A DNA stretch of 64,000 nt from an uncultured Campylobacteraceae bacterium (GTDB lineage: Bacteria; Campylobacterota; Campylobacteria; Campylobacterales; JALSKU01): positions 17,448-81,447 of the forward strand of contig CAZKWE010000009.1 in NCBI GenBank assembly GCA_964556545.1. Direction: 5' to 3'. The position numbers and the translations under genes were made by a program. Positions 3,555 through 47,649 of the stretch are shown piece by piece. Under the pieces are notes generated by a model. It had not been told where the DNA came from and ran no database searches. It was given only the letters and a program-made list of their open reading frames with translations. The number at the start of each line of letters is the position of its first letter. The first letter of the stretch is position 1.

Positions 3555-4361
3555 TTATTGAACTCTTTTTAGCCATGATATATTTTTAAACCATTTGTTG
3601 TAAATTTTTTCATAAGTTCCATCGTGCTTTATCTGGTTTAAAAAATTGTCAAGCCAGTTAAGAAAATCAGGATCCCCTTTTCTTACTGCCCATCCAAGCG
3701 GTTCAAATGTAAGGTCCTTATCCCAAAAAACTATACCTTTTCCACCTCTTTTTGCCATAAACATTGCATTATAAGGCTTGTCATAAACAAATGCATCAGC
3801 TTTTCCGTTCAACAATTCTTGAACCGCATCCGCTTCGGTATCAAAAGTTCTGATTTTTGCATGTTTAAACATTCTTCTTGTTGCTATCTCTCCTGTAACT
3901 CCCAGTTTTGTAACAATTGTGTATTGTGGCTTATCCAAATCTTTCCATGATTTTTTACCTTTTGCAACACTGGCTCTTACAAGCATTGTTTGTCCTATGC
4001 TTATATATGGATTTGCGAAGTTGATTTTTAAATTTCTTTTTTGAGTGATAGTCATACCTGAAATAATCATATCATATTTACCTGCAAGCAATCCGGCTAT
4101 TATGCCATCCCAGGCTGTTGGAACTATTTTTAATTTTACTCCCATATCTTTTGCCATTTTTCTGGCAATATCTACATCAAAACCTATAATTTTACCTTTT
4201 TTATCTTTCATTTCAAAAGGCATATATCCCGGCTCCATACCTACTCTCAGCTCACCTCTTTGAACTATTTGATTCAAAGTGGATTTTTTCCACAGATTGA
4301 GATCTGATGCCATCACATTGAGGCTTAGAAATGCAAGAACTGCAACTAAAATCTTCTTCAT
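3555..4361 (-). CDS. amino acid ABC transporter substrate-binding protein
   Basis: 268 aa with a signal peptide (MKKILVAVLAFLSLNVMA) and family-3 SBP pattern (GFDVDIA, ISGMTIT..R). It lies 4 nt upstream of the permease gene. Confidence 0.8.
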   Translation of the reverse strand: MKKILVAVLAFLSLNVMASDLNLWKKSTLNQIVQRGELRVGMEPGYMPFEMKDKKGKIIGFDVDIARKMAKDMGVKLKIVPTAWDGIIAGLLAGKYDMIISGMTITQKRNLKINFANPYISIGQTMLVRASVAKGKKSWKDLDKPQYTIVTKLGVTGEIATRRMFKHAKIRTFDTEADAVQELLNGKADAFVYDKPYNAMFMAKRGGKGIVFWDKDLTFEPLGWAVRKGDPDFLNWLDNFLNQIKHDGTYEKIYNKWFKNISWLKRVQ

Positions 4362-4440
4362 GTTTTCTCCTTAAAAATTTTCTAACATAACATTTTACTT
4401 AATTTTTCTTAAAAATTGTTTACCGCAAATAAGTTTCATT

Positions 4441-4450
4441 TTGGTATAAT
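4441..4450 (+). promoter_or_regulatory. extended -10 promoter (TTGGTATAAT) driving the repeated leader, copy 1
   Basis: TGnTATAAT match lies 7-8 nt upstream of the first nucleotide conserved between the two leader copies. A similar box sits at the same position in copy 2. Confidence 0.5.
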
Positions 4451-4457
4451 CAAATGA

Positions 4458-4616
4458 AACAATCATGTTTCAAAAAACACAAACAAAAATAAAATCATGA
4501 TTGTTTCTCTCGCCGACAGGTGTAGCATAAGTTTTACCCCACAAAATTTTAAAATTTTGTTGGGACCCCAAAGTGATAGGAATTTTTGCTGGAATCCATT
4601 TCCGGCAAAAAGGAGA
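4458..4616 (+). promoter_or_regulatory. structured leader / candidate cis-regulatory RNA, copy 1
   Basis: About 95% identical to 22867..23026. It has four predicted hairpins, stem substitutions are mostly wobble-compatible, and it ends in AAAGGAGA. No ORF is conserved between the copies. Confidence 0.5.
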
Positions 4617-4670
4617 ATTTAAGGTGAAAAACCGATATAATGAGGTCTCATAATATTTAGGCAGAAAAAA

Positions 4671-5555
4671 ATGATTAATAAATTAAAAGAGTTTGGTGCG
4701 GATATAGTTCTTTTTAGTGTTGCACTCTCATGGGGTGCAACCTTTGTTATCGTACAAGATGCCATAAAAGATATTCCTGTTTTTGCATTTTTATTTTTAA
4801 GATTTTTTCTTAGTTTTTTGCTTATGTTTTTCTTCTGTTTTAAATACTTTAAACAGCTTGACAAACAACTTTTACAGGCGGGAATCTTTCTCGGGAGCCT
4901 CTTTTTTTTAGGATATGCGACACAAACATACGGACTTGTTTATACCAAATCTTCCATAGTGGCTTTCATAACAGGCTTAAATGTTATTATAGTTCCTATC
5001 GTAGTTTATATATTTTTTAGAGAAAAAGTATATATATTTTCTATTGTAGGGGCTGTTATAGCGGCTTTTGGGCTTTGGCTGCTAACTGGCGGGGGAAGTG
5101 TAGACAGTTTGGGCAAAGGGGAATTTTATTCTTTTTTGTGTGCTGTGTTTTTTGCCGTACATATTGTATTTACGGCAAAACTTTCAAAAAAATACAATAC
5201 TTTTTTACTTGTTAGCATACAACTCTTGAGTGTTGCCTTGCTTTCACTTTTAACATCTTTGGCAATTGATCCTTTTACTTTTCCAAAAGTTTATACATTT
5301 CCTGTGATATTGGCTCTTGTAACGACAGTTTTGTTTGCTACGGTTTATGCACTTTTTATGCAAACTTATATGCAACAGTTCACGACTCCCGCCAAAACTG
5401 CTATCATTTTTACAATGGAGCCGGCAAGTGCGGCTGTATTTAGCTATTTTTATGCACATGAAATTTTAAATTATACTCAAATTGCAGGAGGAATTATCAT
5501 GATGGCAGCTATGCTTATAGCCGAGATAGGTGCTTATTATAGAAATAAAATCTAA
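4671..5555 (+). CDS. EamA/DMT-family transporter
   Basis: 294 aa with about 10 hydrophobic helices and two-fold internal EamA-like organisation (SWGATFV..., TPAKTAIIFTMEPASAAVF). Confidence 0.75.
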   Translation: MINKLKEFGADIVLFSVALSWGATFVIVQDAIKDIPVFAFLFLRFFLSFLLMFFFCFKYFKQLDKQLLQAGIFLGSLFFLGYATQTYGLVYTKSSIVAFITGLNVIIVPIVVYIFFREKVYIFSIVGAVIAAFGLWLLTGGGSVDSLGKGEFYSFLCAVFFAVHIVFTAKLSKKYNTFLLVSIQLLSVALLSLLTSLAIDPFTFPKVYTFPVILALVTTVLFATVYALFMQTYMQQFTTPAKTAIIFTMEPASAAVFSYFYAHEILNYTQIAGGIIMMAAMLIAEIGAYYRNKI

Positions 5556-5563
5556 AAGTAACT

Positions 5564-6568
5564 CTAATAACCGTTTTTTGAAATTATTTTGGGGTTTATC
5601 TGTAAATCTCTCATATCGGTAAAATAATTGTGGCTGTATGCTTCGATAGCATATCTTCCTATCATAGCGGCATTATCCGAGCAGTATTTAAGTTTTGACA
5701 ATTTTAATTCAAGTCCGAATTCACCGCATAATGCAAAAATATTTTCTCTTAAACTTAAATTGGCACTTGCTCCTCCTACGATACCAAAGACTTTTATACC
5801 GTTTCTTTCTTTTTTGAGTATATTTTTTGTCTTATGAAGAAGGTGGGCAATAGCTGTTTTTTGAAAAGAAGCACAGATATCATATTTATCCTTCTCTGTC
5901 AAATCTCCAAGGGCCTCTATGGCAAGTCTTACCTGATTTTTTAAGCCCGAATAACTAAAAGCATGTCGGTTTGAATTGTATAAAGGAATAGTAAAATTAA
6001 ATCTTGAAAAATCTCCTTTTGATGCATATTCTTCCACTTTCGCTCCCCCGGGATATCCAAGCCCAAGCATTTTGGCCACTTTATCAAAACTCTCTCCGAA
6101 ACTATCATCCAAAGTGGTGGCAAGCACTTCATAATTAAAAAAATCTTTTACTCTTAAAAGCATTGTATGTCCTCCTGAAACCAAAAGGGTTATCATAGGA
6201 AAAGTACCATTTGTCTCTATAAATAAAGATGCAATATGTCCTTTTAAGTGATTGACTGCAATCAATGGAATATCCAAAGCAATGCTTAAAGCTTTTGCCA
6301 TTGTTACACCCTCTATCAAAGTAACGGAAAGTCCGGGTTCATTTGTAACTGCTACTGCTTTTAAGGCATCAAAATAAACTTTACACTCCTCTAAAATTTT
6401 TGGAAGTGCCTCAGTATGAAGCCTTGCGGCAAGCTCGGGTACTACACCGCCATACTTAGAATGTTCGCTGTCTTGAGAAATTTTTTTGTGGTATATCAAT
6501 TTTTTTGTATTTATCTCTGTTACGGCAATGGAACTATCATCGCAACTACTCTCGATACTCAGTAGCAT
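5564..6568 (-). CDS. tsaD: tRNA N6-adenosine threonylcarbamoyltransferase
   Basis: 334 aa with [21 protein letters not shown] and VSGGHT motifs of TsaD/Kae1/Gcp. Confidence 0.9.
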
Positions 6569-7641
6569 ATCATCTCTTTTGCAAATTTTCTGACTTCTTT
6601 ATCAACTTCAAAAATATCATTAAAATTTTGTAAAGATATATCTTGAAATTTTTCATATGAAGAGAGTGTTATCTTCGAAATATCAAAAAACGATATATCC
6701 CCATTTAAAAAAGCTTCTACCCCTATCTCATTGGCTGCATTTATCACGACTCCTGCTTGAGGATTTTTAAGAACCTCATCTTTTATCTGCCATATCGGAT
6801 ACCTTTTTTCTTCAATTTTTTTAAAACTTAACTCTTTTATATCCAGCAGGTTGATATTTGATACAATTTTATGCGAAGGCTCAGACCCCAAAAGAGCATA
6901 TGATATAGGCAATCGCATATCTGCTCCTGCAAAATGGGCAGTTGTGCTTCCGTCTTTAAATTCCAAAAGCGCATGAATAATAGAGTTTTTTTCGATAACC
7001 GCATCAACACTGTCCGTATCAAAAAGCCATTTTGCCTCTAAAAGTTCAAAAAGCTTATTTGTCATTGTCGCACTGTCTATACTTATCTTTTTGCCCATTT
7101 TCCAATTCGGATGATTTAAAGCATTACTTGCTTTTTGATTTTTTATATCAGATATATCCATATCTCTAAAAGGACCTCCGCTTGCAGTCAGGATAATCCT
7201 CTTTATTGTTCTGTCGTTTAGCATATACCATACGGCAAAATGCTCGCTATCTATGGGGATAATTTTTGAACTATCTACAAAAGCTCCGGCAACTACCAAA
7301 CTCTCTTTATTTGCAAGAGCCAGTTTCTTATCCAGTTTTAATGCTTCAAGAGTAGGCACAAGACCCAAAAAACCGACCAGAGCATTTACAACCAATTTGC
7401 TTTTGGATATATTTATAGCTTCAAGTATTCCCTCTTCCGCATAAAAAACTCTATCATGTTTCACATAAGGAATTAACTCTTTTTTTGCTACTGCTACAAA
7501 CTTGGGACGAAACTCTTTTATTTGAGTATTTAAAAGTTTTATATTGCTTCCTGCTACCAGAGTTTCTACTTCAAGATTAAACTCTCTTGCTATATTTAAA
7601 ACATTAACCCCGATAGAGCCTGTGCTGCCAAGAAGTATCAA
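6559..7641 (-). CDS. dxr: 1-deoxy-D-xylulose-5-phosphate reductoisomerase
   Basis: 360 aa with [17 protein letters not shown] and [21 protein letters not shown] motifs. Confidence 0.9.
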
Positions 7642-20351: not shown

Positions 20352-21535
20352 GTCTTAATTTAACCGCTATACTTCAACCAAAAAATCTTGATGAATTTAT
20401 CGGTCAAAGCCATATATTGAGTAATGACAAGCCTCTTTATAAGCTTATAAATAAAAAAGAAATTCCTCATATGGTATTTTTTGGCCCCCCGGGATGCGGC
20501 AAAACCACACTTGCCAAAATCTGTGCTTCACGATTGGAAAGTTCATTTCACTACCTTGATGCTACAAATCTCAAAGTAGAAGATATAAGAAAAATATTAT
20601 CAAAAAATACTCTTTTAAAACCACTTATCTTCATAGATGAAATACACAGACTATCAAAAAATCAACAAGAAGTTCTACTTTTGCCGATGGAAAGAAAAAA
20701 CTGTATCATCATAGGAGCAAGTACGGAAAATCCTTATTACTCTTTGACTTCGGGCATAAGGTCACGAATGATGCTGTTTAAATTCAAACCGCTAAACAAA
20801 AAAGAGCTTGAGAGTATTCTTGAAATGGCAATCCGAAAATTTGGTTTTAAGATTGAAAATGATGCAAAAGAGTATCTTTTGCATACAAGCGGCAATGATG
20901 CCAGAAGCATGTTAAATCTGATAGAATTTGCACTTGTAATTGAAAAAAATATTACACTAAAAACTCTAAAATCTCTTAAAGATATGCCTTCAAAAGAAGG
21001 AGTAAATTCAAAAGAGACACACTATGATCTTATAAGTGCACTTATAAAAAGTATAAGAGGAAGTGATATAGATGCCTCTTTGTATTATCTTGCAAGGATA
21101 ATTGAAGCCGGAGAAAAAGCAGAGTATATAGCAAGAAGACTTGTTATCCTCTCAAGCGAAGATATAGGAAATGCAAACCCGAATGCATTGAATTTGGCAA
21201 CCAATACACTAACTGCCGTTGCCCATATAGGATATCCGGAAGCGAAGATCATATTATCGCAATGTGTCATATATCTTGCATCATCACCAAAATCAAACAG
21301 CAGTTATAAAGCTATAAAAAATGCTCAAAAATATATAAAACAAAATACTTTAAAACCCATACCGAATCATTTAAAACAAAATTCCGAGGATTATCTTTAT
21401 CCTCATGATTTTGGCGGATATATAAAGCAAGAGTATATGAAAGATAGTGTAAAATTTTATAAAAATAATAAAATAGGCTTTGAAAAAACTCTAAATGAGT
21501 GGCTTAAAAAATTAAAAACGGAGACAAACAATTGA
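20348..21535 (+). CDS. rarA: replication-associated recombination protein A (AAA ATPase)
   Basis: 395 aa with Walker A GPPGCGKTT, FIDEIHR, and the C-terminal MgsA region (HYDLISALIKSIRGSD.DA.LYYLARI). Confidence 0.85.
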   Translation: MSLNLTAILQPKNLDEFIGQSHILSNDKPLYKLINKKEIPHMVFFGPPGCGKTTLAKICASRLESSFHYLDATNLKVEDIRKILSKNTLLKPLIFIDEIHRLSKNQQEVLLLPMERKNCIIIGASTENPYYSLTSGIRSRMMLFKFKPLNKKELESILEMAIRKFGFKIENDAKEYLLHTSGNDARSMLNLIEFALVIEKNITLKTLKSLKDMPSKEGVNSKETHYDLISALIKSIRGSDIDASLYYLARIIEAGEKAEYIARRLVILSSEDIGNANPNALNLATNTLTAVAHIGYPEAKIILSQCVIYLASSPKSNSSYKAIKNAQKYIKQNTLKPIPNHLKQNSEDYLYPHDFGGYIKQEYMKDSVKFYKNNKIGFEKTLNEWLKKLKTETNN

Positions 21536-22866
21536 ATATAGCAATCATAGGTGGCGGTATAAGCGGACTTACCACTGCATTTTACATAAAATACTTCAGT
21601 CCGCAAACGAAGATAACACTTTTTGAAAAAGAAGCTTATCTTGGCGGAAAAATGCATACGGTTCAAAAAGACGGTTTTTTTATAGAAGAGGGTAGCAATG
21701 GATTTTTATCCAATAAACCTGACACTTTGGAGCTTGTAAAACTTAGCGGATGCAAAGATATACTTTTAAAAAGCAGTGATAATGCGAGAAAAAGATTTAT
21801 TTATGATAAAAAGCTTGAAGTTTTACCCGAATCTCCAAAAGCATTTTTAACAACTTCTCTTCTTAGCCTAAAAGGAAAACTTAGAGTTTTATGGGAACCA
21901 TTTGCATTTGCTAAAAAAGATGACGGTGATGAAAGTCTGCAATCATTTGGTTACAGAAGAGTAGGAAAAGAGATGACTGATGTTTTTTTGGATGCTATGG
22001 TTGCAGGAGTTTATGCTTCAACTCCATCAAAAATATCAGCCCCGGCAGCATTTCCGCTTGTAGTCAATCTGGAAAAAAAGTATGGTTCTCTTTTTAAGGG
22101 TATGCTTGCAAAAAAGAAAAAAGAAGCAGGGCCGGGCGGAGTTTTAATGAGCTTTAGAGGCGGAGTCAGCTCTTTTATAGAAAAACTCTCATTATGTATT
22201 GATATGAATATCATAAAAGATACACAAATTACAAGCTTGCAAAAAGATAAAAATGAGTTTGTTATAACTTCGGACAATATAAAAATGCACTTTGACAAAG
22301 TTGTACTTGCCACTCCGGCTTACAGTACGGCGAATATTTTAAAAGAGTTGGCTCCGGATTTATCAAAAGAGTTAGAAGAGATAGAGTATTCGCCGATATC
22401 TATAGTGGCAACAGGTTATGAAAAACTATCAAATGATTTAAACGGTTTTGGTCTTTTAACAACCACAAGAGCTAAAAAAAGTATTCTTGGTATTCTTTGG
22501 GACAGTTCCATATTTGACGACAGAGCCCAATCAAACAAAAAGCTTCTTAGGGTCATGATAGGCGGACAAAGAGATAAAAAATTAGCTTTAAAAGATGAAA
22601 ATGAACTTTTGACAATAGCATTAAATGGTATAAAAGAGACTATGGCAATAGATAAAAAACCTGATTTTTACTATATAAAAAGATGGGAAAAGGGGATACC
22701 GAACTATGCTGTAGGCCATATAAAAAAAGTGGATAAAATTTTTAATATGGCTAAAAATATAGATGGTTTATATCTTAATTCAAATGCATACAAGGGTATA
22801 GGTTTAAATGATTGTGTTAGCAATTCAAAAAAGTGTGCTTTGGAAATAGTTGGTAAAAATTCTTAA
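21532..22866 (+). CDS. hemY: FAD-dependent protoporphyrinogen oxidase-like protein (HemY/PPOX family)
   Basis: 444 aa with the N-terminal dinucleotide fold IAIIGGGISGLT, E...LGG motifs and PPOX-like length. TTG start. Confidence 0.65.
   Translation: MNIAIIGGGISGLTTAFYIKYFSPQTKITLFEKEAYLGGKMHTVQKDGFFIEEGSNGFLSNKPDTLELVKLSGCKDILLKSSDNARKRFIYDKKLEVLPESPKAFLTTSLLSLKGKLRVLWEPFAFAKKDDGDESLQSFGYRRVGKEMTDVFLDAMVAGVYASTPSKISAPAAFPLVVNLEKKYGSLFKGMLAKKKKEAGPGGVLMSFRGGVSSFIEKLSLCIDMNIIKDTQITSLQKDKNEFVITSDNIKMHFDKVVLATPAYSTANILKELAPDLSKELEEIEYSPISIVATGYEKLSNDLNGFGLLTTTRAKKSILGILWDSSIFDDRAQSNKKLLRVMIGGQRDKKLALKDENELLTIALNGIKETMAIDKKPDFYYIKRWEKGIPNYAVGHIKKVDKIFNMAKNIDGLYLNSNAYKGIGLNDCVSNSKKCALEIVGKNS
22851..22860 (+). 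promoter_or_regulatory. extended -10-like box (TGGTAAAAAT) driving the repeated leader, copy 2
   Basis: It occupies the same position relative to the conserved block as TTGGTATAAT in copy 1, and lies inside the last codons of the hemY-like gene. Confidence 0.4.
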
Positions 22867-23026
22867 AACAATCATGCTTCAAAAAACACAAATAAAAATA
22901 AAAATCATGATTGTTTCTCTCGCCGACAGGCGTAGCATAAGTTTTACCCCACAAAATTTTAAAATTTTGTGGGGACCCCAAAGTGATAGGAATTTTTGCT
23001 GGAATTCATTTTCAGCAAAAAGGAGA
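22867..23026 (+). promoter_or_regulatory. structured leader / candidate cis-regulatory RNA, copy 2
   Basis: About 95% identical to 4458..4616. Its 3' AAAGGAGA is the SD for the ATG at 23035. Confidence 0.5.
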
Positions 23027-23034
23027 TTTTAAAA

Positions 23035-24245
23035 TGAAATATATCTTTTTTATTTTTTTGCCGGTTTTTGTATTTGCAAATGTACTTCAAGATGTCATAG
23101 ACAAAGCAAAACCATACTCCGTAATAGAACTCAAAGACGGAATTTACAAAGGAAATATAGTTATAAACAAACCTTTAAAAATCTTGGCAAAACAAGGGGC
23201 AAAGGCTATTATCGATGCAGACAAAAAGGGCAGTGTCATACTTTTGAAAAGTTCGAATATAACTTTACAAAATCTCATCATAAAAGGAACAGGTCACAGA
23301 AAAGAGATATTTGATAGTGCGATTATAGGCGAAAAGATAAATAACATAACTATAAAAAATTGCAAAATTACCGACTCTCTTTACGGTATAAATATCTCTA
23401 TGGCAAATAATATAAAAATTATCTCAAATACAATCTCTTCAAAAGATGAAAAAAAGCCTTTAAGAGGAGACGGTATAAAGTTTTGGTATGTAAACAATTC
23501 AAAGATTATAGGAAATACTTTTTTAAAAGTAAGAGATATACATTTTGAGAGATCCGATAATAATATCATAAAAAATAACCGTTTCTTATACAATAGATTT
23601 GCAACCCATATAGAGTTTGGTAAAAATAACCTTATTGAAAATAACTTTTACAGATACAATTCGGTCGGTATTTTACTTGAGGGTACGACAAAAATAAAAA
23701 TTATAAAAAATAAAATTCTAAATTCAAACGGCATGGCAGCCATAGGAGCACTTTTCAGAGGCGGAAATCATATAATTTTTCAAAATAATATACTCAAATA
23801 CAACAGAGAAGGATTATATATTGATGCAAAACCTTCCAAGCTTGAAAAATTTAAAAGAAAAATAATCAATAATGAGATAAGTTTTAACTTGCAAGCCATA
23901 CACTTTCATGCAATCATTGCCAACAATATTATAACATTCAATAAAATTCATGACAACCTTTATGATATAGTAAAAGATATAACAGGATATAAAAATTTAA
24001 ACAATAAGGTAGAATACAATTATTGGGGTCAATACAAAGGATTTGATACAAATTATGACAATATAGGAGATACCCCTTATATTATAAAAAGATATTTTGA
24101 CAAACTTTACAGTTATAACAATAAAATAAAATTCTTTTACGGCAGTACTGTTATGGCAGTAGTGGATTTTTTATGTGAAATAGCTCCATTTACCAAACCG
24201 GAAATACTCCTTGTGGATAAAAAACCTGTATTTAAGGATAAATGA
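23035..24245 (+). CDS. NosD-family periplasmic right-handed beta-helix protein
   Basis: Start moved to ATG 23035 (MKYIFFIFLPVFVFA signal peptide, SD AGGAGA 8 nt upstream). Has a NosD-like N-terminus (LQDVIDKAKP..VIELKDGIYKGNIVINKPL), repeated N..I.NN beta-helix units and a C-terminal GDTPY motif. Confidence 0.7.
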
Positions 24246-36951: not shown

Positions 36952-37058
36952 GCACTTCTCTTCAGATGGCTGCGGCACATAAACTCACAGGGTGCTCTGC
37001 TGCGTTCCCGCCCTGAAGCATTGTCCTGTAAGTCTATTGCACAGGTCTGAAGAGAAGC
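36952..37058 (-). ncRNA. ffs: signal recognition particle 4.5S RNA
   Basis: GC-rich island in AT-rich DNA. The minus-strand RNA folds into one long hairpin closed by GCUUCUCUUCAGA/UCUGAAGAGAAG(U)GC. Its apex, CAGG-GCG-GGAA-CGC-AGCA, matches the domain IV pattern of E. coli 4.5S RNA (CAGG-UCC-GGAA-GGA-AGCA). A TGGTACAAT -10 box lies on the minus strand at 37093-37101. Ends are approximate. Confidence 0.75.
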
Positions 37059-37115: not shown

Positions 37116-37574
37116 ATGATATTAAAAAAGATAAAAAATTATATCTTCTCTTTTTTCAGAGAGTTTTTGGTTTTTCATCACAGTTCTTTGGAGTTTAGAG
37201 CAAAATTGCTTGCATCAATGATAAGTATAAAAGAAAATATTGATAAATGTGAGAAAGATATATTGAAAAGTATAGCTGTTGAAATATATAAAAATGATGA
37301 CAGCAGAGCCGAAATTCTTATAAATACAACTCTTGAATATGTAAAAAAGATACATGAAATAAATGGTTTGTATATTGATGATTTGATATTGGATATTGAT
37401 AAAAATTTAAAGAAATATCCGAAATTTTATAAAAAAATTGATATAGAAAAATTAAATAGATTTTTAAAATGCAAAGCTACAACCGAAGAAAAACTTTTAA
37501 GACTAAGAATTTTGGAATATTATAAAAAAGAGTTGGAATATAAAGGTTTGTTAAATAATGCAGATAATAAATAA
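37116..37574 (+). CDS. hypothetical protein, co-transcribed with sensor kinase
   Basis: 152-aa ORF with SD GAGG. It overlaps the kinase start by 17 nt. It is helical, shows faint TerB-like resemblance only, and I recognise no family with confidence. Confidence 0.45.
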   Translation: MILKKIKNYIFSFFREFLVFHHSSLEFRAKLLASMISIKENIDKCEKDILKSIAVEIYKNDDSRAEILINTTLEYVKKIHEINGLYIDDLILDIDKNLKKYPKFYKKIDIEKLNRFLKCKATTEEKLLRLRILEYYKKELEYKGLLNNADNK

Positions 37575-39765
37575 AATAGTAATTGTTTTATTTATTATAT
37601 CTACTTTACTATTTTCATATGATAGATATAATATATTGGTTTTACACTCTTATCATAAAGGTTATAAATGGAGTGATGATATATCAAAAGCAATAGAAGA
37701 TAATTTTCAAAATAATCCGAATATCGATATAACTACACTTTATATGGATGCACAAAGAATTGAAAATGATTCATACTACAGTAAACTTTTTGAGCTTTAT
37801 AAAGAGGAATTTAAACATACTGCTTTTGATGTTGTTGTCGCAGTTGACAACAATGCCTTGGAATTTTTAACCAGGTTTAGAGATAAGATTTTTCAAAATA
37901 GTCCGATTGTTTTTTGCGGTATCAATAATTTCAGCGAAAAAATGATAGATTTTCCAAACTTTAGATATAAAGTTACCGGAATTGTAGAAAATGTTGATGT
38001 TAAAAAAAATATAGAGCTAATAATAAATATGGTTCCGTATCTTAACAAAATACTTATCATTAGTGATGAATCAAAAAGCGGATTGGATATAAAAAAAGAT
38101 ATTTTTAAAATTATGAAAAACTATTTTTATCTAAATTACGAATATCTTGATATGTTTGATTTAAAAGGTATAAAAAAGATAGTAAAAACTTTAAAAAAAC
38201 ATGATGCTATATTATATGTTTTTCATCAAAGAGATAAATCCGGAAAATATTTTACATATAAAGATTCTCTAAAAGAGGTAGCTTCTGTCAGTAAAGTTCC
38301 TATATTTGGTTTATGGGATTTTGATATGGGATACGGAGTAGTCGGAGGAGCTTTGCTAAATGGATACTCTCAAGGAAATGAAGCGGCAAAAATGGTATCT
38401 TTGATACTAAACGGAGTTGAACCGAAAGATATACCAATTTTAAAAAAAAGTACTTCAAGATATATATTTGATTATAATCTCTTAAAAAAATATAATTTAA
38501 AAATTCCAAAAAATATAAGAAAGGAAGCTTTGATTTTAAATAAACCAAAATCCATATATGAACAACATAAAAAAATTATTTGGATATTTGGTTCAATATT
38601 ACTGTTTTTGCTGATAGTCAGTATAATTTTACTTATTAATATAACCAAAAAAAACAGGGCTGAGAAAAAGCTTCAAGAACAGTTGAAATTTTTAGAAGTT
38701 TTGATTGAAACTATACCGAACCCTATTTTTTACAAAGACAAATCCGGAAAATATTTAGGATGCAATAAAGCTTATGCCGATTTTATAGGTGCTACAAAAA
38801 AAGATATCTTGGGTAAAACAAGTTATGCATTTTTTAAAAATTTTGTAGCAAGTCAAAATACAAAAAGAGATCAAGAACTTTTAAATTCATTGAAAAATGA
38901 TATATATGAGACAACTTTATATTCAAAAGACGGGAAATTTGCCAAACAGGTAATTATCAGCAAGGCCCCTTTTTATTTAAGTGACAATAGTGTTGGCGGA
39001 ATTGTATGTGTTATAGATGATATAACGGAAGTAACACAGCAAAAGGAACTTTTAAACCAACAGTCAAAATTGGCTGAGATGGGAGATATGATTGCGGCAA
39101 TTGCACATCAATGGAACGAACCTTTAGTAGAATTATCCGCGATAGTGCAAGATTTGCAAATGAATTTTTTGGAAGGAAGTATTGAAAAAAAAGATATTGA
39201 AGAATTTGTAAAAGATTCTATGATTCAAATACAATATATGTCAAATACTATAAAAGATTTTAGAAATTTTTTAAAGCCGTCTGTAAAAAAAGGAAAATTT
39301 TCTTTAAAAAAAGCATTTAGTGAAATTTATGAAATTATAGGAAAACAGATATTTTATGCAAATATAAATCTTATCTTTGCTGTTGATACCAAAAAAGAAG
39401 ATATTGAAATATACGGATATGAAAATGAATTTAAACAGGTACTTTTAAATCTTATCAATAATTCAAAATCAAAAATTATAGAGTTGCAAGAAAAAAATAA
39501 AAAGTTTATAATAGAAATAGAAGCTTTTATAAAAGAGAATAAAATTTTTATAAATATAAGAGATAATGGAGGCCATATAAAAGATAGTATTATAGAATTT
39601 ATATTTAATCCTTATTTTACAACTAAAAAGAATGGTACAGGACTTGGTCTGTATGTGGCAAAAATAATTATAGAAGATAAAATGAATGGGCATATCAAGG
39701 TACAAAATATTGAAAAAGATATAGTAGAATTTACAATTATTGTTCCAAAAGCAAAGGAGATATAA
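37558..39765 (+). CDS. sensor histidine kinase with periplasmic ABC-type substrate-binding-like domain and PAS domain
   Basis: 735 aa: signal anchor, ~300-aa periplasmic domain (VLHSYHKGYKWSDD pattern), TM helix, PAS (NPIFYKDK.GKYLGCNKAY), H-box IAHQWNEPL, and an ATPase domain (GTGLGLY). Confidence 0.8.
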   Translation: MQIINKIVIVLFIISTLLFSYDRYNILVLHSYHKGYKWSDDISKAIEDNFQNNPNIDITTLYMDAQRIENDSYYSKLFELYKEEFKHTAFDVVVAVDNNALEFLTRFRDKIFQNSPIVFCGINNFSEKMIDFPNFRYKVTGIVENVDVKKNIELIINMVPYLNKILIISDESKSGLDIKKDIFKIMKNYFYLNYEYLDMFDLKGIKKIVKTLKKHDAILYVFHQRDKSGKYFTYKDSLKEVASVSKVPIFGLWDFDMGYGVVGGALLNGYSQGNEAAKMVSLILNGVEPKDIPILKKSTSRYIFDYNLLKKYNLKIPKNIRKEALILNKPKSIYEQHKKIIWIFGSILLFLLIVSIILLINITKKNRAEKKLQEQLKFLEVLIETIPNPIFYKDKSGKYLGCNKAYADFIGATKKDILGKTSYAFFKNFVASQNTKRDQELLNSLKNDIYETTLYSKDGKFAKQVIISKAPFYLSDNSVGGIVCVIDDITEVTQQKELLNQQSKLAEMGDMIAAIAHQWNEPLVELSAIVQDLQMNFLEGSIEKKDIEEFVKDSMIQIQYMSNTIKDFRNFLKPSVKKGKFSLKKAFSEIYEIIGKQIFYANINLIFAVDTKKEDIEIYGYENEFKQVLLNLINNSKSKIIELQEKNKKFIIEIEAFIKENKIFINIRDNGGHIKDSIIEFIFNPYFTTKKNGTGLGLYVAKIIIEDKMNGHIKVQNIEKDIVEFTIIVPKAKEI

Positions 39766-39862
39766 ATATGAAACGAAGTTTCATTCTTGCCAAAGGCAAA
39801 GCTTTAGTGATAGGAATTTGCTTGGCGACTTGTTGCAAAGCAAAGGAGATATAAATATGAAA
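39748..39862 (+). repeat. perfect 26-bp direct repeats flanking a 63-bp insert at the kinase/regulator junction
   Basis: AAAGCAAAGGAGATATAAATATGAAA occurs at 39748-39773 and again at 39837-39862. The insert contains AGTGATAGGAATTT, which is shared with the two leader copies. Confidence 0.85.
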
Positions 39863-40501
39863 ATACTACTTTTAGAAGATAACAAAAGATTAAACAATAC
39901 TATAACAAAAAGATTAAAGATAGAGTGTTTTGAAGTTGATTCTTTTTTTGATGGAAGTAAAGCTTTTGAAGCAGTAGGAAAAGGATATAACTGTTATGTA
40001 CTTGATATAAATGTACCAAACATAAACGGTGTAAAGATACTGAAAAATATCAGGGAGTATTTTCCAAATGTTCCTATCATTATCATTAGTTCAACCGTTG
40101 AGCTTGATATCATAAAAAATGCCTACAATACCGGATGCGATGATTATATTAAAAAACCGTTTTTTATAGATGAATTGATTATAAAAATAAAAAAATTGTG
40201 TAATATTGATAAAAATATCATAAAGATAGATGAACATTATGTATTTAATACAAAAGAAAATTCTCTTCTAAAAGATAATAAAATTATAGAGTTATCCAAA
40301 AAAGAAAAACTTCTTCTCGAACTTTTTATAAATTATAAGGATAAGCTTGTAACTTATGAAAGAATAGAGAGTTTTGTATGGGAAGGGGAATTAACAACCA
40401 TAGATTCCATTAGAGCTTTAGTAAAAAGAGTTAGAAAAAAACTACCTCCAAATTGTATAAAGACAGAAGTCAATGAAGGATATAGATTTTTTGTCATATA
40501 A
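39857..40501 (+). CDS. OmpR-family response regulator
   Basis: Start at ATG 39857 (MKILLLEDNKRL, SD AAGGAG 8 nt upstream). The track start 39740 runs through the repeat insert. Receiver domain plus C-terminal winged helix (LS.KE..LLELF, GYRF). Confidence 0.85.
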   Translation: MKILLLEDNKRLNNTITKRLKIECFEVDSFFDGSKAFEAVGKGYNCYVLDINVPNINGVKILKNIREYFPNVPIIIISSTVELDIIKNAYNTGCDDYIKKPFFIDELIIKIKKLCNIDKNIIKIDEHYVFNTKENSLLKDNKIIELSKKEKLLLELFINYKDKLVTYERIESFVWEGELTTIDSIRALVKRVRKKLPPNCIKTEVNEGYRFFVI

Positions 40502-40553
40502 ATGTCATGTATATATGCTAAAATTGTTGTTAAATTTTTTAAAAGGAGCATAT

Positions 40554-41636
40554 ATGAAGTTTTTGTCAACGACTATTAAAACTGCAGCAGTTGCCGCTTT
40601 GGCAGTCAGTATGAGTATAAGTGCGGCAAGTGCCAGAGTTTATCACTGGAAACTTGCTATGACATGGCCGACAAATTTACCACCGTTTAGTGATACGGTA
40701 TATAAATTTGCTGATGATGTTAAAAAAATGAGTAACGGTCAACTTATTATAAGAGTTGATTCTAAAAATAAACACAAATCTCCATTTGGGATTTTTGATA
40801 TGGTAAGAGCCGGTCAGTATGAAATGGGTCATACTGCATCTTATTATTATAAAGGTAAAGATCCGAATACAATGTTCTTTACCACAATGCCATTTGGTAT
40901 GATAGCCCCGGAACAATGGGCATGGTTTTATTATGGAAATGGTATGAAATATATGGAAAAAGTATATAACAAATACAATATTATGGCATTTCCAGGAGGT
41001 GCAACCGGAAACCAAATGGGCGGATGGTTTAGAAAGCCTATAAAATCTTTAGCTGATTTAAAAGGTCTTAAGATGAGAATTCCGGGACTTGCCGGAGAGA
41101 TTATGGCAAAACTTGGAGTAACTGTTACCAATATAGCCCCGGGAGAACTTTATACTTCACTTGAAAGAGGCAATATTGATGCATTGGAGTGGGTAGGACC
41201 CGGTATGGATATAAGAATGGGATTTCATGAAATTGCCAAATATTATTATACAGGATGGCATGAGCCTGCAACATCTCTTACATATTTTGTGAATAAAAGA
41301 AAATGGGATAAACTTCCGGATAATTTAAAAGCAATACTTAAAGATGCTATGAAAGCAAATGCTTTTGATATGTATGTCCAAAATTATGATATGAGTGCAA
41401 GAGCTTGGAAAAAAATGAAAGAGAAATATCCTCAAATTAAAATCAAAACATTTCCTAAAGAGGTTTTTAAAGCTATGAAAAAAGCCAATGATGAAGTATT
41501 GGCAAAATATGCTTCAAAAGATCCTTTGTTTAAAGAGATATTGCAAGACCAAAGAAAGTATTTGAAAATGGTAAGAGAATGGACAAAAATGTCTGACTTT
41601 TTATATCTAAAAGCAAATATGTATAACCAAGAGTAA
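40554..41636 (+). CDS. dctP: TRAP transporter substrate-binding protein (DctP/TakP-like)
   Basis: Start at ATG 40554 (MKFLSTTIKTAAVAALAVSMSISAASA signal peptide, SD AAGGAG). The YHWKLAMTWP... pattern fits TakP-type TRAP SBPs. Confidence 0.8.
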   Translation: MKFLSTTIKTAAVAALAVSMSISAASARVYHWKLAMTWPTNLPPFSDTVYKFADDVKKMSNGQLIIRVDSKNKHKSPFGIFDMVRAGQYEMGHTASYYYKGKDPNTMFFTTMPFGMIAPEQWAWFYYGNGMKYMEKVYNKYNIMAFPGGATGNQMGGWFRKPIKSLADLKGLKMRIPGLAGEIMAKLGVTVTNIAPGELYTSLERGNIDALEWVGPGMDIRMGFHEIAKYYYTGWHEPATSLTYFVNKRKWDKLPDNLKAILKDAMKANAFDMYVQNYDMSARAWKKMKEKYPQIKIKTFPKEVFKAMKKANDEVLAKYASKDPLFKEILQDQRKYLKMVREWTKMSDFLYLKANMYNQE

Positions 41637-41644
41637 ACTCTCTT

Positions 41645-41671
41645 TTCTCTCCTCTTTTTAAGAGGAGAGAA
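41645..41671 (+). terminator. strong intercistronic hairpin after dctP (attenuator or mRNA stabiliser)
   Basis: 11-bp perfect stem TTCTCTCCTCT / AGAGGAGAGAA with a 5-nt loop, located 9 nt after the dctP stop. No clean U-tract follows. Confidence 0.45.
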
Positions 41672-41696
41672 ACTATAAATTTTAGGAAAAATTAAA

Positions 41697-42263
41697 ATGG
41701 ATAAATTAGTAAAAGCAGAGATAATTTTTGATAAGATTATCGATAAAATAGGCAAACTTTGTGCATATTTGATGCTTTTGATGATGCTGAATGTATTTTA
41801 TGATGTTGTTATGAGATATATTTTTAGAGAAGGCTCAATAGCCATGCAAGAACTTGAGTGGCATATTTTTTCGGTAATTATACTTCTTGGAGTATCTTAT
41901 ACTCTAAAAGAAGACGGGCATGTAAGAGTTGATGTTTTGTATGATAGATGGAGTCCGAAAACTCAAGCTATTATAAATATAGTCGGAGTAATTTTATTTT
42001 TATGGCCTTTGTCATTTCTTATAGCATACGGTTCTATTGATTTTGTTGTAGAATCATATCAAATGCATGAGATAAGCGGAGATCCGGGGGGACTTACTCA
42101 CCGTTGGATTTTAAAGGCGCTTATACCGTTCTCTTTTATACTTCTTATCTTTGCAAGCATAGGTTTTATTATAAAAAATATAAATATTTACAGAGGATAC
42201 GGCAGGGCAAAAACCAGAGAAGATGAGATAAAAGAAGCAATTGAGCAGGGAGGTATAGAGTAA
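41697..42263 (+). CDS. dctQ: TRAP transporter small permease
   Basis: 188 aa, four helices. Position between the TRAP SBP and large permease genes. Confidence 0.8.
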   Translation: MDKLVKAEIIFDKIIDKIGKLCAYLMLLMMLNVFYDVVMRYIFREGSIAMQELEWHIFSVIILLGVSYTLKEDGHVRVDVLYDRWSPKTQAIINIVGVILFLWPLSFLIAYGSIDFVVESYQMHEISGDPGGLTHRWILKALIPFSFILLIFASIGFIIKNINIYRGYGRAKTREDEIKEAIEQGGIE

Positions 42264-43606
42264 TGATTGGTATTACGATGTTTTTTACAGCTCTGGTTAT
42301 GCTTCTTATAGGATTTCCTGTTGCTTTTACATTTGGAGCTGTTTCTGTATTTTTCGGAATGGCTGCAGGGTTTTTTACTGTTATCCCGGATGGCGGAACC
42401 GTAATGGAAGCTTTGGATGAGGGTTTCAATATGTTTGCAATGATGCCTCATCGTATCTGGTCAATTATGACAAATACGATACTGATGGCAATTCCTCTGT
42501 TTATATTTATGGGAATTGTACTTCAAAAAAGTAAACTTGCAGAGAGATTGTTGGAGTCAATGGGATTTTTATTTGGAGAAGTTAGAGGGGGAGTAGCTAT
42601 CAGTACGGTATTGGTCGGAGCATTGCTTGCCGCTTCAACAGGTGTTGTAGGAGCAAGTGTTATAGCAATGGGTGTTATATCGCTTCCTGTAATGCTCAAA
42701 TACAATTATTCAAAACCTTTAGCCTGCGGTACCATATGTGCTGCGGGTACATTGGGGCAAATTATACCTCCTTCCATAGTGCTTATTATTTTGGGAGATG
42801 TCTTTCAAATACCGGTAGGAGATCTTTTCAGACAAGCTTTTGGACCCGGTTTTTTGTTAGTAGCAGCTTATGTAATATATATACTTATTATCTCGTTTAT
42901 AAAAAAAGATGTAGCTCCTTCAATAAAACTTGAAGGAAATACCGGAACCAAAGCTCAGCAGATTTGGGGAGCACTTAAGGCCATACTTCCTCCTTTGACA
43001 CTTATTGTAGTTGTTCTCGGATCTATATTTGCAGGTATTGCAACTCCGACAGAATCTTCAGCGGTAGGAAGTATAGGTGCTATAATTTTAGCGATAATGT
43101 ATAAAAAATTTTCATGGAAAATACTTGAAGAGGCTGCATTGGAGAGTTCAAAAACTACTGCTATGGTTTTTGGAATTCTTATAGGTGCAACAGCATTTTC
43201 AATGGTATTTACTTATACGGGTGGGGATTTGCTTATAGAAAATTTTATGACCAATTTACCGGGACAAAAGTGGGGATTCGTCATACTTTCTATGATTATT
43301 ATATTTATACTTGGTTTTTTTATAGATTTTATAGAGATTTCATATATTATTGTCCCGATACTTGTTCCAATAGCTGACACTATCGGTATCAATCCTATGT
43401 GGTATGCCATACTTATTGCTATGAATTTACAGAGTTCTTTTTTAACACCGCCATTTGGTTTTAGTCTGTTTTATCTCAAAGGTGTTGCACCGCCTTCGGT
43501 GAAAACTATGGATATATATAGAGGTATTATACCATTTATCATTATACAAATGATTATCTTAGGTATCGTTATAGTATATCCCGGATTTTTTGGAATGCAT
43601 TCGTGA
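42263..43606 (+). CDS. dctM: TRAP transporter large permease
   Basis: 447-aa polytopic protein with DctM-like pattern (IPLFIFMG, GG.A...V..A....A.TG). Confidence 0.85.
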   Translation: MIGITMFFTALVMLLIGFPVAFTFGAVSVFFGMAAGFFTVIPDGGTVMEALDEGFNMFAMMPHRIWSIMTNTILMAIPLFIFMGIVLQKSKLAERLLESMGFLFGEVRGGVAISTVLVGALLAASTGVVGASVIAMGVISLPVMLKYNYSKPLACGTICAAGTLGQIIPPSIVLIILGDVFQIPVGDLFRQAFGPGFLLVAAYVIYILIISFIKKDVAPSIKLEGNTGTKAQQIWGALKAILPPLTLIVVVLGSIFAGIATPTESSAVGSIGAIILAIMYKKFSWKILEEAALESSKTTAMVFGILIGATAFSMVFTYTGGDLLIENFMTNLPGQKWGFVILSMIIIFILGFFIDFIEISYIIVPILVPIADTIGINPMWYAILIAMNLQSSFLTPPFGFSLFYLKGVAPPSVKTMDIYRGIIPFIIIQMIILGIVIVYPGFFGMHS

Positions 43607-46368: not shown

Positions 46369-47649
46369 CTATGCTCCCGTATAAAGTTGTCTTGGTCTTG
46401 CAATCTTAGCTTTCTTATCTTTTTTTAATTCCATCCATTGGCTTATCCATCCTACGGTTCTTCCTATGACAAAGATGGCAGTAAAAAGATTTCTTGGAAT
46501 CCCGAGAGATGTTAGTATAACACCGGAATAAAAGTCTATATTTGGGTAAAGATTTCTTTTTATAAAGTATTCGTCATTTAAAGCTATCTCTTCGATTTTA
46601 TGTGCGATTTCAAGTAATTTTGAGTCCAAATTTAATTCATCTTTTAATTGGTCTTGTAATTTTTTAAGTATTTTTGCTCTTGGGTCAAAGCTTTTATAAA
46701 CTCTGTGTCCAAATCCCATAAGCCTGAAAAAATCATCGGGGTCTTTGGCTTTTTTTATATATTTATCTACATTTTTTATATTACCGATTAATTCAAGTTG
46801 AGATATGACCGATTCATTTGCACCGCCATGTGCTCTGCCCCAGAGTGCATTGATACCTGCTGATATGGCAGCATACGGATGAGCTCCTGTAGATGCAACA
46901 GTCCTAACGGTTGTGGTTGATGCATTTTGTTCATGGTCTGCATGAAGAGTAAAGATAGTATCAAGTGCTTTTATCTCTATCTTGCTTATTTCTCTTGGAG
47001 CTTTTTTACCAATATTTCTATGCATTTTACCACCAGGATATGCTCTCATCATATATAAAAAATTTTCGGTAAAATATCTGTCAATATCAGGCTGAATAAT
47101 AGGAATGCCAAGTACTCTTCTATAGGCAAAAGCTGTAAGTGTAGGAATTTTGGCTATGATTCTTGCTGCCATTTCTTTAAAATCTTTATCATCTTTAACA
47201 TTTAAATGATCAAAATAAAAAGCAGACAAAGCACTGACTGCAGATGAGAGCATTGCCATAGGATGGGCAGTTCTTGGAAAAGAGTCAAAAAGTTTTCTTA
47301 AGCCCTCATCTATAAAAGCTCTATGTCTTAATTCATTATCAAATACCAAAGCCTCATTTTTTGAAGGAAGATTTCCGTTTAAAAGCAGATAACATACTTC
47401 TATATAATTGTATTTTTCTGCCAACTCTTCTATGGGATATCCTCTGTATCTGAGTTCGCCTTTTTCTCCATTTATGAAAGTTATATCCGATTTACAACTT
47501 GCCGTAGAAGTAAAGCCCGGGTCGTATGTAAACATTCCCGTATCTTTGTAAAATGTTCTGATATCAAGAACCTTCGGACCTCTACTTCCTTTTAGCACAG
47601 GATACTTATATGTTTTGTTTCCAATTTTTATAGTTGCGATATCGGACAC
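46369..47649 (-). CDS. gltA: citrate synthase
   Basis: 426 aa with HADHEQNAST and MGFGHRVYK.FDPRA motifs. Confidence 0.95.
   Translation of the reverse strand: MSDIATIKIGNKTYKYPVLKGSRGPKVLDIRTFYKDTGMFTYDPGFTSTASCKSDITFINGEKGELRYRGYPIEELAEKYNYIEVCYLLLNGNLPSKNEALVFDNELRHRAFIDEGLRKLFDSFPRTAHPMAMLSSAVSALSAFYFDHLNVKDDKDFKEMAARIIAKIPTLTAFAYRRVLGIPIIQPDIDRYFTENFLYMMRAYPGGKMHRNIGKKAPREISKIEIKALDTIFTLHADHEQNASTTTVRTVASTGAHPYAAISAGINALWGRAHGGANESVISQLELIGNIKNVDKYIKKAKDPDDFFRLMGFGHRVYKSFDPRAKILKKLQDQLKDELNLDSKLLEIAHKIEEIALNDEYFIKRNLYPNIDFYSGVILTSLGIPRNLFTAIFVIGRTVGWISQWMELKKDKKAKIARPRQLYTGA

Follow-up and report, generated by a model that had tools for sequence, protein, structure and literature searches.

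A probable portable translation-initiation leader inserted between a sensor kinase gene and a response regulator gene in Campylobacterota

REP/BIME, ERIC, the pneumococcal BOX and RUP elements and the Correia elements of Neisseria are dispersed structured intergenic repeats. In coupled leader cistrons, and in the synthetic ‘bicistronic design’ (BCD) initiation element reportedly described by Mutalik et al. in 2013, ribosomes on a leader open reading frame (ORF) open the local structure and hand over to the gene. Dual CsrA sites are known from glgC, hag and C. jejuni flaA. Here we describe an 89-nucleotide (nt) unit that lies between a sensor kinase gene and a response regulator gene in a 64-kb stretch of DNA from an uncultured Campylobacteraceae bacterium (the window, which is part of ENA contig k141_345749). 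We consider it likely that the insert is one copy of a conserved, structured mRNA leader of ~85 nt with its own Shine–Dalgarno (SD) sequence, and that this leader is a portable, cis-acting element for translation initiation.

The unit sits between the stop codon of the kinase and the ATG of the regulator, and is marked by a perfect 26-bp direct repeat, AAAGCAAAGGAGATATAAATATGAAA, at 39748–39773 and 39837–39862, with an insert of 63 bp between the copies. The final 18 nt of the kinase gene fall within the first copy, and the repeat continues to the left, interrupted by a single indel and a single mismatch (TTGTTCCAAAAGC versus TTGTTGC-AAAGC). Deleting the unit would leave the junction TAA-AT-ATG. 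What has been duplicated around the inserted unit is a ribosome-binding site (RBS) and a start codon. The first of the two start codons, 2 nt past the kinase stop, opens a mini-ORF whose own stop lies 2 nt short of the regulator ATG. An earlier reading of this DNA from its letters alone (the sequence-only reading) had reported the repeat coordinates, the kinase stop in the first copy, a TAA 2 nt from the ATG once the unit is removed and an ORF of 28 codons, and each of these points is borne out by the sequence.

That reading also tied the insert to two leaders of ~190 nt elsewhere in the window, at 4441–4629 (leader A) and 22850–23039 (leader B). Exactly three window positions, 4572, 22982 and 39806, carry the 14-mer AGTGATAGGAATTT, always on the + strand. 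Pairwise shuffle tests, by which the sequence-only reading had proposed to refute the kinship, are ambiguous and underpowered: against the leader alone, only 2 of 1,000 shuffled inserts match as well, in favour of the kinship, whereas 55 of 150 shuffled inserts match equally well at some point in the window, and the best window-wide hit of the insert itself is an unrelated site at 47115–47150. The matter was decided by a covariance model of the family (R2), built from 88 metagenome units only and run on the window without filters. With this model the insert scores 80.0 bits (E 1.7e-18), leader B reaches 57.7 bits and leader A 49.7 bits, and nothing else in the 64-kb window scores. The insert is a member of the leader family, and the independent model excludes a chance similarity.

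The kinship therefore stands on a model made from foreign units, but one correspondence drawn by the sequence-only reading does not. It had equated the first hairpin of the insert (HP1, TTGCC-AAA-GGCAA) with a long AT-rich hairpin in the leaders; in alignment A6 the true counterpart is CGCC-GACA-GG(T/C)G, at 4511–4522 and 22921–22932, and the long hairpin (4537–4564 in leader A) belongs to a 42-nt insertion into the core. This AT-rich insertion (ACCCCACAAAATTTT/AAAATTTTGTGGGG) lies at 4530–4571 and 22940–22981, between the flanks AAGT...AAAGT, and is absent from every other unit seen. As it falls within the core of both leaders, the core tolerates a large insertion.

Relatives of the window organism show when the unit arrived. 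We read the junction in ten related lineages, found through regulator homologs of 77–86% identity. Eight of these relatives lack the unit, and the kinase stop there abuts or overlaps the regulator start (TAGATG, TAAGTG, TTGA). In one relative, L017, the same junction holds an orthologous unit of 89 nt. Its kinase and that of the window are 86.1% identical, are both 735 amino acids long and are mutual closest relatives by kinase identity and tree, which fits a single gain of the unit in their common ancestor. Over 2,944 nt, with the 89-nt unit included, the window is matched by L002, a Logan assembly made independently from run SRR8542060. The strain comparison that the sequence-only reading had suggested thus finds the unit in the window, in L002 and in L017 and misses it in eight relatives, and the assembly artefact that the reading had named as a danger is ruled out by the identical independent assembly and the same unit in L017. 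It was in the ancestor shared by the window organism and L017 that the unit entered the kinase/regulator junction.

When one genome per species was scanned with a sequence pattern, the module turned up in seven Campylobacterota genomes (Sulfurovum, three Sulfurospirillum, and metagenome-assembled genomes of Campylobacteraceae, Helicobacteraceae and Campylobacterales). Nine aligned units gave a clear consensus with two covarying hairpins, and a model made from these nine found the window leaders, which were outside its training set, as well as more copies in loci L018 and L024. A looser scan of metagenomes returned at least 120 matching stretches, from which 88 units at 80 loci were extracted for alignment. 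The family unit of ~85 nt comprises a UCU tract, HP1, the single strand AAGCUUUAGUGA(G/U)AGGAAUUU, a 12-bp second hairpin (HP2), AAAGGAGA, ~7 nt and AUG. In the consensus, the pyrimidine tract is (U)UCU, HP1 has 5–6 bp and a loop of AAA or GNNA, and the single-stranded core reads A-AGCUUUAGU-G(A/C)(G/U)-AGGAAUUU; the 12 bp of HP2 have an A–U-rich base and a variable top, and its 3′ end abuts the SD, which is GGAGA (GGGGA in one subfamily) and is followed by ~7 nt, often ACAAUUAA, and then AUG. The insert has the same layout, with HP2 abutting GGAGA (Table 1), and its core plus the next three U includes the 14-mer that it has in common with both leaders.

In the 88-unit alignment, 93% of helix cells are paired, compared with 65.7% in shuffles, and compensatory changes occur in 16 of the 17 pairs. 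The covariation score is 0.725, as against 0.225 for shuffled alignments and at most 0.151 with the partners slid. G·U pairs far exceed A·C pairs (94 versus 16), an excess which assigns the structure to the sense-strand RNA. The fold is conserved as sense-strand RNA. Ensemble folding is dominated by HP2, leaves the SD and AUG ~50–60% unpaired, and includes a competing pairing between the 5′ UCU tract and the GAGAG of the core.

The orthologous unit in L017 adds change at a single locus. HP2 differs between the two by three compensatory pairs (GCUUGGCGA-CUUG-UUGCAAAGC in the window, AUUUGGAAA-CUUG-UUUCCAAAU in L017). The functional RNA module proposed by the sequence-only reading is upheld by this compensation and by the covariation among the 88 units, although the covariation argument that it offered falls away, because the hairpins it compared are not homologous. 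Over the start of the mini-ORF, a 7-bp hairpin, ATGAAAC-NNN-GTTTCAT, has the same stem in the window and L017 and a different loop; it is specific to this lineage. In a pairwise test, the L017 insert is not significantly similar to the leaders of the window.

The position of the units relative to genes is equally regular. In 81 of 102 units, an ORF of at least 60 codons follows directly from the 3′ start codon of the unit, and in 54 units a same-strand ORF ends within 150 nt upstream. The insert is placed in the same way, in sense orientation and with the regulator ATG (39857) ~7 nt past the SD. The downstream proteins (76 in all, with hits to 104 Pfam families) have no common theme and include GlmM, aminotransferases, RbfA, PdxJ, NadC, FliQ, radical SAM enzymes and transporters; units are placed immediately upstream of the start codons of unrelated genes. 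They also persist before orthologous genes of different organisms, in 14 ortholog groups, and 24 comparisons of such orthologous-locus units show 112 compensatory pair changes with the core barely altered.

A metabolite or ion riboswitch would likewise be a structured element of 5′ leaders, and sometimes a tandem one. The 76 downstream proteins share no pathway, however, and this lack of a metabolic theme makes a ligand-specific riboswitch unlikely; moreover, the fold consists of two plain hairpins and no Rfam family matches it. We hold this explanation very improbable, even when it is pooled with the two others that would make the leader connection spurious, namely a chance likeness, for which the window-wide shuffles speak and against which the independent covariance model stands, and an artefact of assembly, which the identical independent assembly and the ortholog contradict.

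A selfish dispersed repeat, similar to a miniature inverted-repeat transposable element (MITE) or to REP and amplifying in tandem, offers a different account of the distribution. The junction copy would then be tolerated and near neutral, and kept only because its SD and open relay frame happen to survive. Several features of the family are of this kind: the unit is polymorphic for presence and absence among close relatives, direct repeats flank units, the downstream genes have no common function, and copy number differs widely between genomes, from at least 7 units in 8 kb (L018) through 3 in the 64-kb window to 1 in 150 kb of Sulfurovum mangrovi. Tandem arrays of two to three units occur, some of them identical; L027 has three identical units of 82 nt before ispH (730–982), and L026 has two units. 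In L018, tandems of two to three units lie at 4185–7260 before hemN-, carbamoyltransferase- and ribA-like genes.

Other features sit poorly with selfish spread. Terminal inverted repeats are missing: neither the unit (CGAAGTTTCATTC... and ...GACTTGTTGC, with or without the direct repeat) nor the family consensus has ends that are reverse complements, which removes a MITE with inverted repeats. A MITE with a short (2–10 bp) target-site duplication and insertion in either orientation is also rejected, given that the repeats are 17–26 nt long and are the RBS itself and that 81 of 102 units stand in sense orientation, with a long ORF at a fixed distance. An element of REP/BIME type, which would be a single conserved imperfect palindrome per genome, extragenic in either orientation and tied to a RAYT transposase, was discarded on the fixed orientation and on the stems, which differ between copies of one genome (insert versus leaders; L018). 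Within-genome divergence of the stems around a constant core, together with compensatory change in orthologous stems, points to long-term selection on the RNA rather than recent copying, and the G·U excess is strand-specific. No viral contig matched the unit. We therefore judge a selfish repeat unlikely. In the plasmid collection there was one hit, a 395-kb Sulfurovum mangrovi replicon, with 1 unit in the 150 kb covered. This replicon (NZ_CP087125.1, L160), a ‘plasmid’ of strain ST1-3, has its unit at 21282–21365 and carries core housekeeping genes, namely pheST, rpsA, efp, genes for tricarboxylic acid cycle enzymes and rplM/rpsI, and looks like a piece of the chromosome or a second chromosome rather than a plasmid.

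How the unit came to be flanked by a duplicated RBS can be followed in part at other loci. In 17 of 96 units, the 5′ flank and the 3′ end share an exact repeat of 15 nt or more (the 95th percentile in comparisons across loci is 10 nt), and most of these 17 are the second units of tandem arrays. Single units with duplicated RBS flanks occur at L024 (AGGAGACAGTTAAATGAA, 18 nt) and L107 (AGGGGACAATAAAATGA, 17 nt), in L017 (AAGGAGAAATAAATATGAA, 19 nt) and in the window (26 nt). The suggestion of the sequence-only reading that the module, along with an SD, can be gained ahead of a gene finds support in the two sister lineages with the unit and eight without it, in the recurrence of RBS duplication at L024 and L107 and in the tandem arrays in L026, L027 and L018.

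In the unit-free relatives, the junction reads CCAAAAAATAAGGAxAxxTAA and then directly the start codon (ATG or GTG), and resembles the 3′ end of the unit itself (AAAAGGAGAcaatTAAATGAA). The unit most likely came in by recombination through short homology or by a templated insertion, either of which would have used the likeness between the native junction (AAGGA..TAA..ATGAA) and the ends of the unit; the copies would have been homogenized later. Within each species, the two repeat copies have the same spacer base, T in the window and A in L017, which suggests conversion between the copies. Window positions 39729–39773, which comprise the kinase tail and the first repeat copy, resemble the 3′ end of the unit and for that reason match the unit model weakly and in part (19 bits, E 0.02); the match fits the idea that similarity between junction and unit end guided insertion. 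We rejected a tandem duplication of the flanking sequence. Outside the repeat, ungapped identity of the insert to the kinase tail and regulator head at offset 89 is ~31%, the chance level, and a gapped alignment to the kinase tail is equalled by 1,076 of 2,000 shuffles. The insert has no detectable similarity to either flank, which gives no support to a simple tandem duplication with later divergence.

The mini-ORF is open over 28 codons in both the window and L017 and has an SD and an ATG, as a gene for a functional small protein or leader peptide (a kinase modulator or an arrest peptide) would, and like peptides (..LAKGKALVRGIF.. or ..SFSxRNF..) recur in other units. Against L017, nevertheless, 1 of its codons differs synonymously and 10 change the amino acid, compared with 59:41 in the regulator and 227:102 in the kinase, a ratio which argues that the peptide is not under purifying selection and is not the selected feature. 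Units that start with ATG have an ORF running through them in either of two frames, ..SFSxRNF.. or ..(L)AKGKALVRGIF.., of which the window peptide is the second kind, and the UAG and UGA conserved in the core stop the third frame. Many units have no start codon, the compensatory stem changes alter the peptide, and the recurring peptide similarity follows from nucleotide conservation. A functional product is accordingly a far-fetched explanation of the mini-ORF.

The placement of these upstream ORFs (uORFs) is more regular than their peptides. Their stops cluster at −5 to +1 relative to the gene start (ATGA, TAATG, TAA-NN-ATG). In 29 of the 78 units with enough upstream sequence, the unit fills the whole intercistronic gap, and 16 of these 29 carry a uORF of 23–33 codons, which begins at −1 to +12 nt relative to the upstream stop and closes at −5 to +1 nt relative to the next start. 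The arrangement in the window is thus no isolated case but a recurrent design, one that seems to preserve translational coupling where a unit has been inserted. At units of the family, gene callers will mis-start genes or call spurious ORFs of 27–30 amino acids.

Read as a portable initiation leader, the unit would be the translation-initiation region of the response regulator. HP2 would shield the SD and insulate it from upstream sequence, and the SD-like AGGA of the core, ~33 nt further upstream, might be where the 30S subunit or a trans-acting RNA-binding factor docks; candidate readers of the core are a CsrA-type dimer bridging two GGA motifs and a small RNA (sRNA) carrying AAAUUCCUCUCACUAAAGC. 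The duplicated start codon would open a 28-codon relay ORF between the kinase stop and the regulator AUG, and, with 2 nt at either end of that ORF, ribosomes leaving the kinase could still reach the regulator. Relay ORF and autonomous SD would together replace the ancestral overlap of stop and start. The unit may shift the ratio of regulator to kinase and place the regulator under whatever reads the core.

If that reader were a global repressor of CsrA type, the unit would be its operator, a dimer bridging the GGA of the core and the GGA of the SD at the base of HP2 and so blocking the ribosome. The two conserved motifs (AGGAAUUU and AAAGGAGA) flank a 12-bp stem and lie ~33 nt from each other. 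In the insert they are AGGAA at 39813–39817 and GGAGA at 39845–39849, ~32 nt apart and both conserved in the family, which falls within the 10–63 nt expected of an upstream GGA in a CsrA-type operator and within the range known for the dual CsrA sites of glgC, hag and C. jejuni flaA. To our knowledge, Campylobacterota lack Hfq and ProQ and rely on CsrA/FliW. The upstream GGA, however, lies in a single strand 5′ of HP2 and not in a hairpin loop, the ~20 conserved nucleotides go far beyond the needs of a CsrA site, and known regulons in the phylum centre on flagellar genes, unlike the housekeeping genes found here. An operator of this type is an improbable explanation of the unit.

Several observations count against a portable initiation leader and have to be set beside the evidence for it. 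Each functional step of the leader is one that we infer. About half of the units have no uORF, so the relay and its coupling are accessory and cannot be the general function. Uneven copy number and tandem arrays are typical of selfish repeats as well. In the locus itself, HP1 loses one pair in L017 and the HP2 of the window contains two non-canonical pairs. Beyond HP1 and HP2, scanning for mutual information revealed no further pairs, leaving the core without a covarying partner, and the conservation of the core was partly imposed by the search patterns with which the units were collected.

One variant of the core goes together with a variant of the SD. In alignment A4 (units of L036–L115, columns 64 and 108), GUCGCGAGG occurs with GGGGA and GU-GAGAGG with GGAGA, the counts being A/A 57, C/G 21 and C/A 7. 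In the mutual-information scan, the connection between the core variant GUCGCG and GGGGA is a subfamily link only; it may reflect shared lineage or a contact that the core makes with the SD region.

Table 1 Features of the kinase/regulator junction and of the related leaders in the window
Feature	Position	Strand	Basis
Leader A: UUUCUCU, HP1 CGCC-GACA-GGUG (4511–4522), core, HP2, SD	4504–4629	+	R2 49.7 bits, alignment A6
Leader B: same architecture as leader A, HP1 22921–22932	22914–23039	+	R2 57.7 bits, alignment A6
Sensor histidine kinase gene, 735 amino acids (ABC_sub_bind, PAS, HATPase_c)	37558–39765	+	ORF list; Pfam labels of the identical L001 gene
Direct repeat copy 1: kinase tail, SD AAGGAG, TAA stop (39763–39765), mini-ORF ATGAAA	39748–39773	+	Identical to 39837–39862
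Mini-ORF of 28 codons, MKRSFILAKGKALVIGICLATCCKAKEI, ATG 39768, TAA 39852–39854	39768–39854	+	ORF list
Hairpin ATGAAAC-GAA-GTTTCAT around the mini-ORF start codon	39768–39784	+	Folding of window and L017; alignment
Leader unit matched by covariance model R2	39776–39862	+	80.0 bits, E 1.7e-18; also 86.9 bits with model R1
HP1 UUGCC-AAA-GGCAA, preceded by pyrimidine tract AUUCU (39783–39787)	39787–39799	+	Covariance-model alignment; family covariation
Single-stranded conserved core AGCUUUAGUGAUAGGAA	39800–39816	+	Covariance-model alignment, family consensus
HP2 UUUGCUUGGCGA-CUUG-UUGCAAAGCAAA, 12 pairs, 2 non-canonical	39817–39844	+	Folding, covariance-model alignment, family covariation
Direct repeat copy 2: HP2 3′ arm, SD GGAGA (39845–39849), spacer, regulator ATG (39857)	39837–39862	+	Sequence identity, covariance model
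OmpR-type response regulator gene, 214 amino acids	39857–40501	+	ORF list, homologs

The two leaders of the window precede unrelated genes and begin alike. Leader A lies upstream of an EamA-type transporter gene and leader B directly upstream of a NosD-like gene that starts at 23034. In leader A, the start position at the 3′ end is a GTG that opens only a 9-codon ORF (4626–4655), and the EamA-type gene starts 45 nt further on, at 4671, so that this is a unit whose 3′ start codon differs from the gene start. The 5′ ends of both leaders (4442–4507 and 22851–22917) have a promoter-like sequence, TGGTATAAT in A and TGGTAAAAAT in B, followed by a 5′ hairpin, AACAATCATG...CATGATTGTT, with an A/C-rich loop of ~30 nt. 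A Sulfurovum unit in L020 has a like 5′ hairpin with a different stem, CCCTCATG...CATGAGGG. This start and hairpin look like a conserved 5′-end version of the leader.

Around the junction, a scan of 39400–40700 for promoters and terminators gave counts at the level of shuffled sequence, with no terminator-like site in 39700–39900. An intrinsic terminator or attenuator, that is, a G+C-rich hairpin followed by a U tract, is ruled out, as HP2 precedes AAAGGAGA. On the 3′ side of the regulator (window 40473–43606 and beyond; L001 7747–8645) are dctP, dctQ and dctM, for a tripartite ATP-independent periplasmic (TRAP) transporter, and then lutABC-like genes encoding CCG and LUD domains. A carboxylate such as lactate is probably taken up and used under the control of the two-component system.

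The leader family is a large and apparently uncatalogued RNA family that is common in Campylobacterota. Against Rfam 15, neither the window leaders and the insert nor eight loci match any family at its gathering score, and E-value scans of leader A, the insert and a canonical unit gave nothing convincing, the best sub-threshold match being fstAT at the level of noise (18 bits, E 0.4); literature searches by sequence string and by concept returned no description of it. The sole Rfam family above its gathering score in the window is the bacterial small signal recognition particle RNA, at 36956–37053 on the − strand (63 bits).

If our reading is right, a large and strongly covarying family, with at least 120 matching metagenome stretches and members in several Campylobacterota families, is missing from Rfam and from the papers searched, and a phylum without Hfq and ProQ would have a regulon-wide layer of translational control. 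Environmental members of this phylum (Sulfurovum, Sulfurospirillum and relatives) have hardly been studied at the RNA level. The junction would be a natural example of a gene acquiring a ready-made initiation region, and would show that a relay uORF can replace tight stop/start coupling in a two-component operon. More tentatively, and with rather less than even confidence, we propose that Campylobacterota harbour a new class of portable structured RBS cassettes, spread by duplication of SD and start codon and by tandem amplification, in which one invariant 20-nt strand could place dozens of unrelated genes, housekeeping as well as regulatory, under a single post-transcriptional reader, be it a protein, an sRNA or the ribosome. 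The kinase/regulator junction would then be an acquisition that has been caught.

The family has points in common with each of the systems named at the outset. As with REP, ERIC, BOX, RUP and Correia elements (compared in their general features), its units are short (~40–150 nt for the class), multi-copy, hairpin-forming, transcribed within operons, polymorphic for presence and absence and, like BOX, modular or tandem in organization; dispersed repeats can alter the expression of neighbouring genes. Unlike those repeats, the leader units stand in sense orientation and in a fixed register before a start codon, carry an SD and have no terminal inverted repeats, and their stems diverge by compensation even within a genome while a 20-nt single strand stays constant. 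With the dual-site CsrA/RsmA operators (glgC, hag, C. jejuni flaA), likened here by sequence only, they have in common an upstream GGA, a GGA in the SD, a hairpin between the two and a compatible spacing, but in the leader the upstream GGA lies outside a loop, the conserved sequence is longer and the downstream genes are others. The coupled leader cistrons and the BCD, finally, have a first SD, a short leader ORF with a second SD near its end and a leader stop at the gene start (ATGA or TAATG, and TAA-NN-ATG at this junction). In contrast to the BCD, the leader family is natural, repeated and built on conserved hairpins and a conserved core, and its ORF is present in about half of the units, conserved in neither peptide nor frame.

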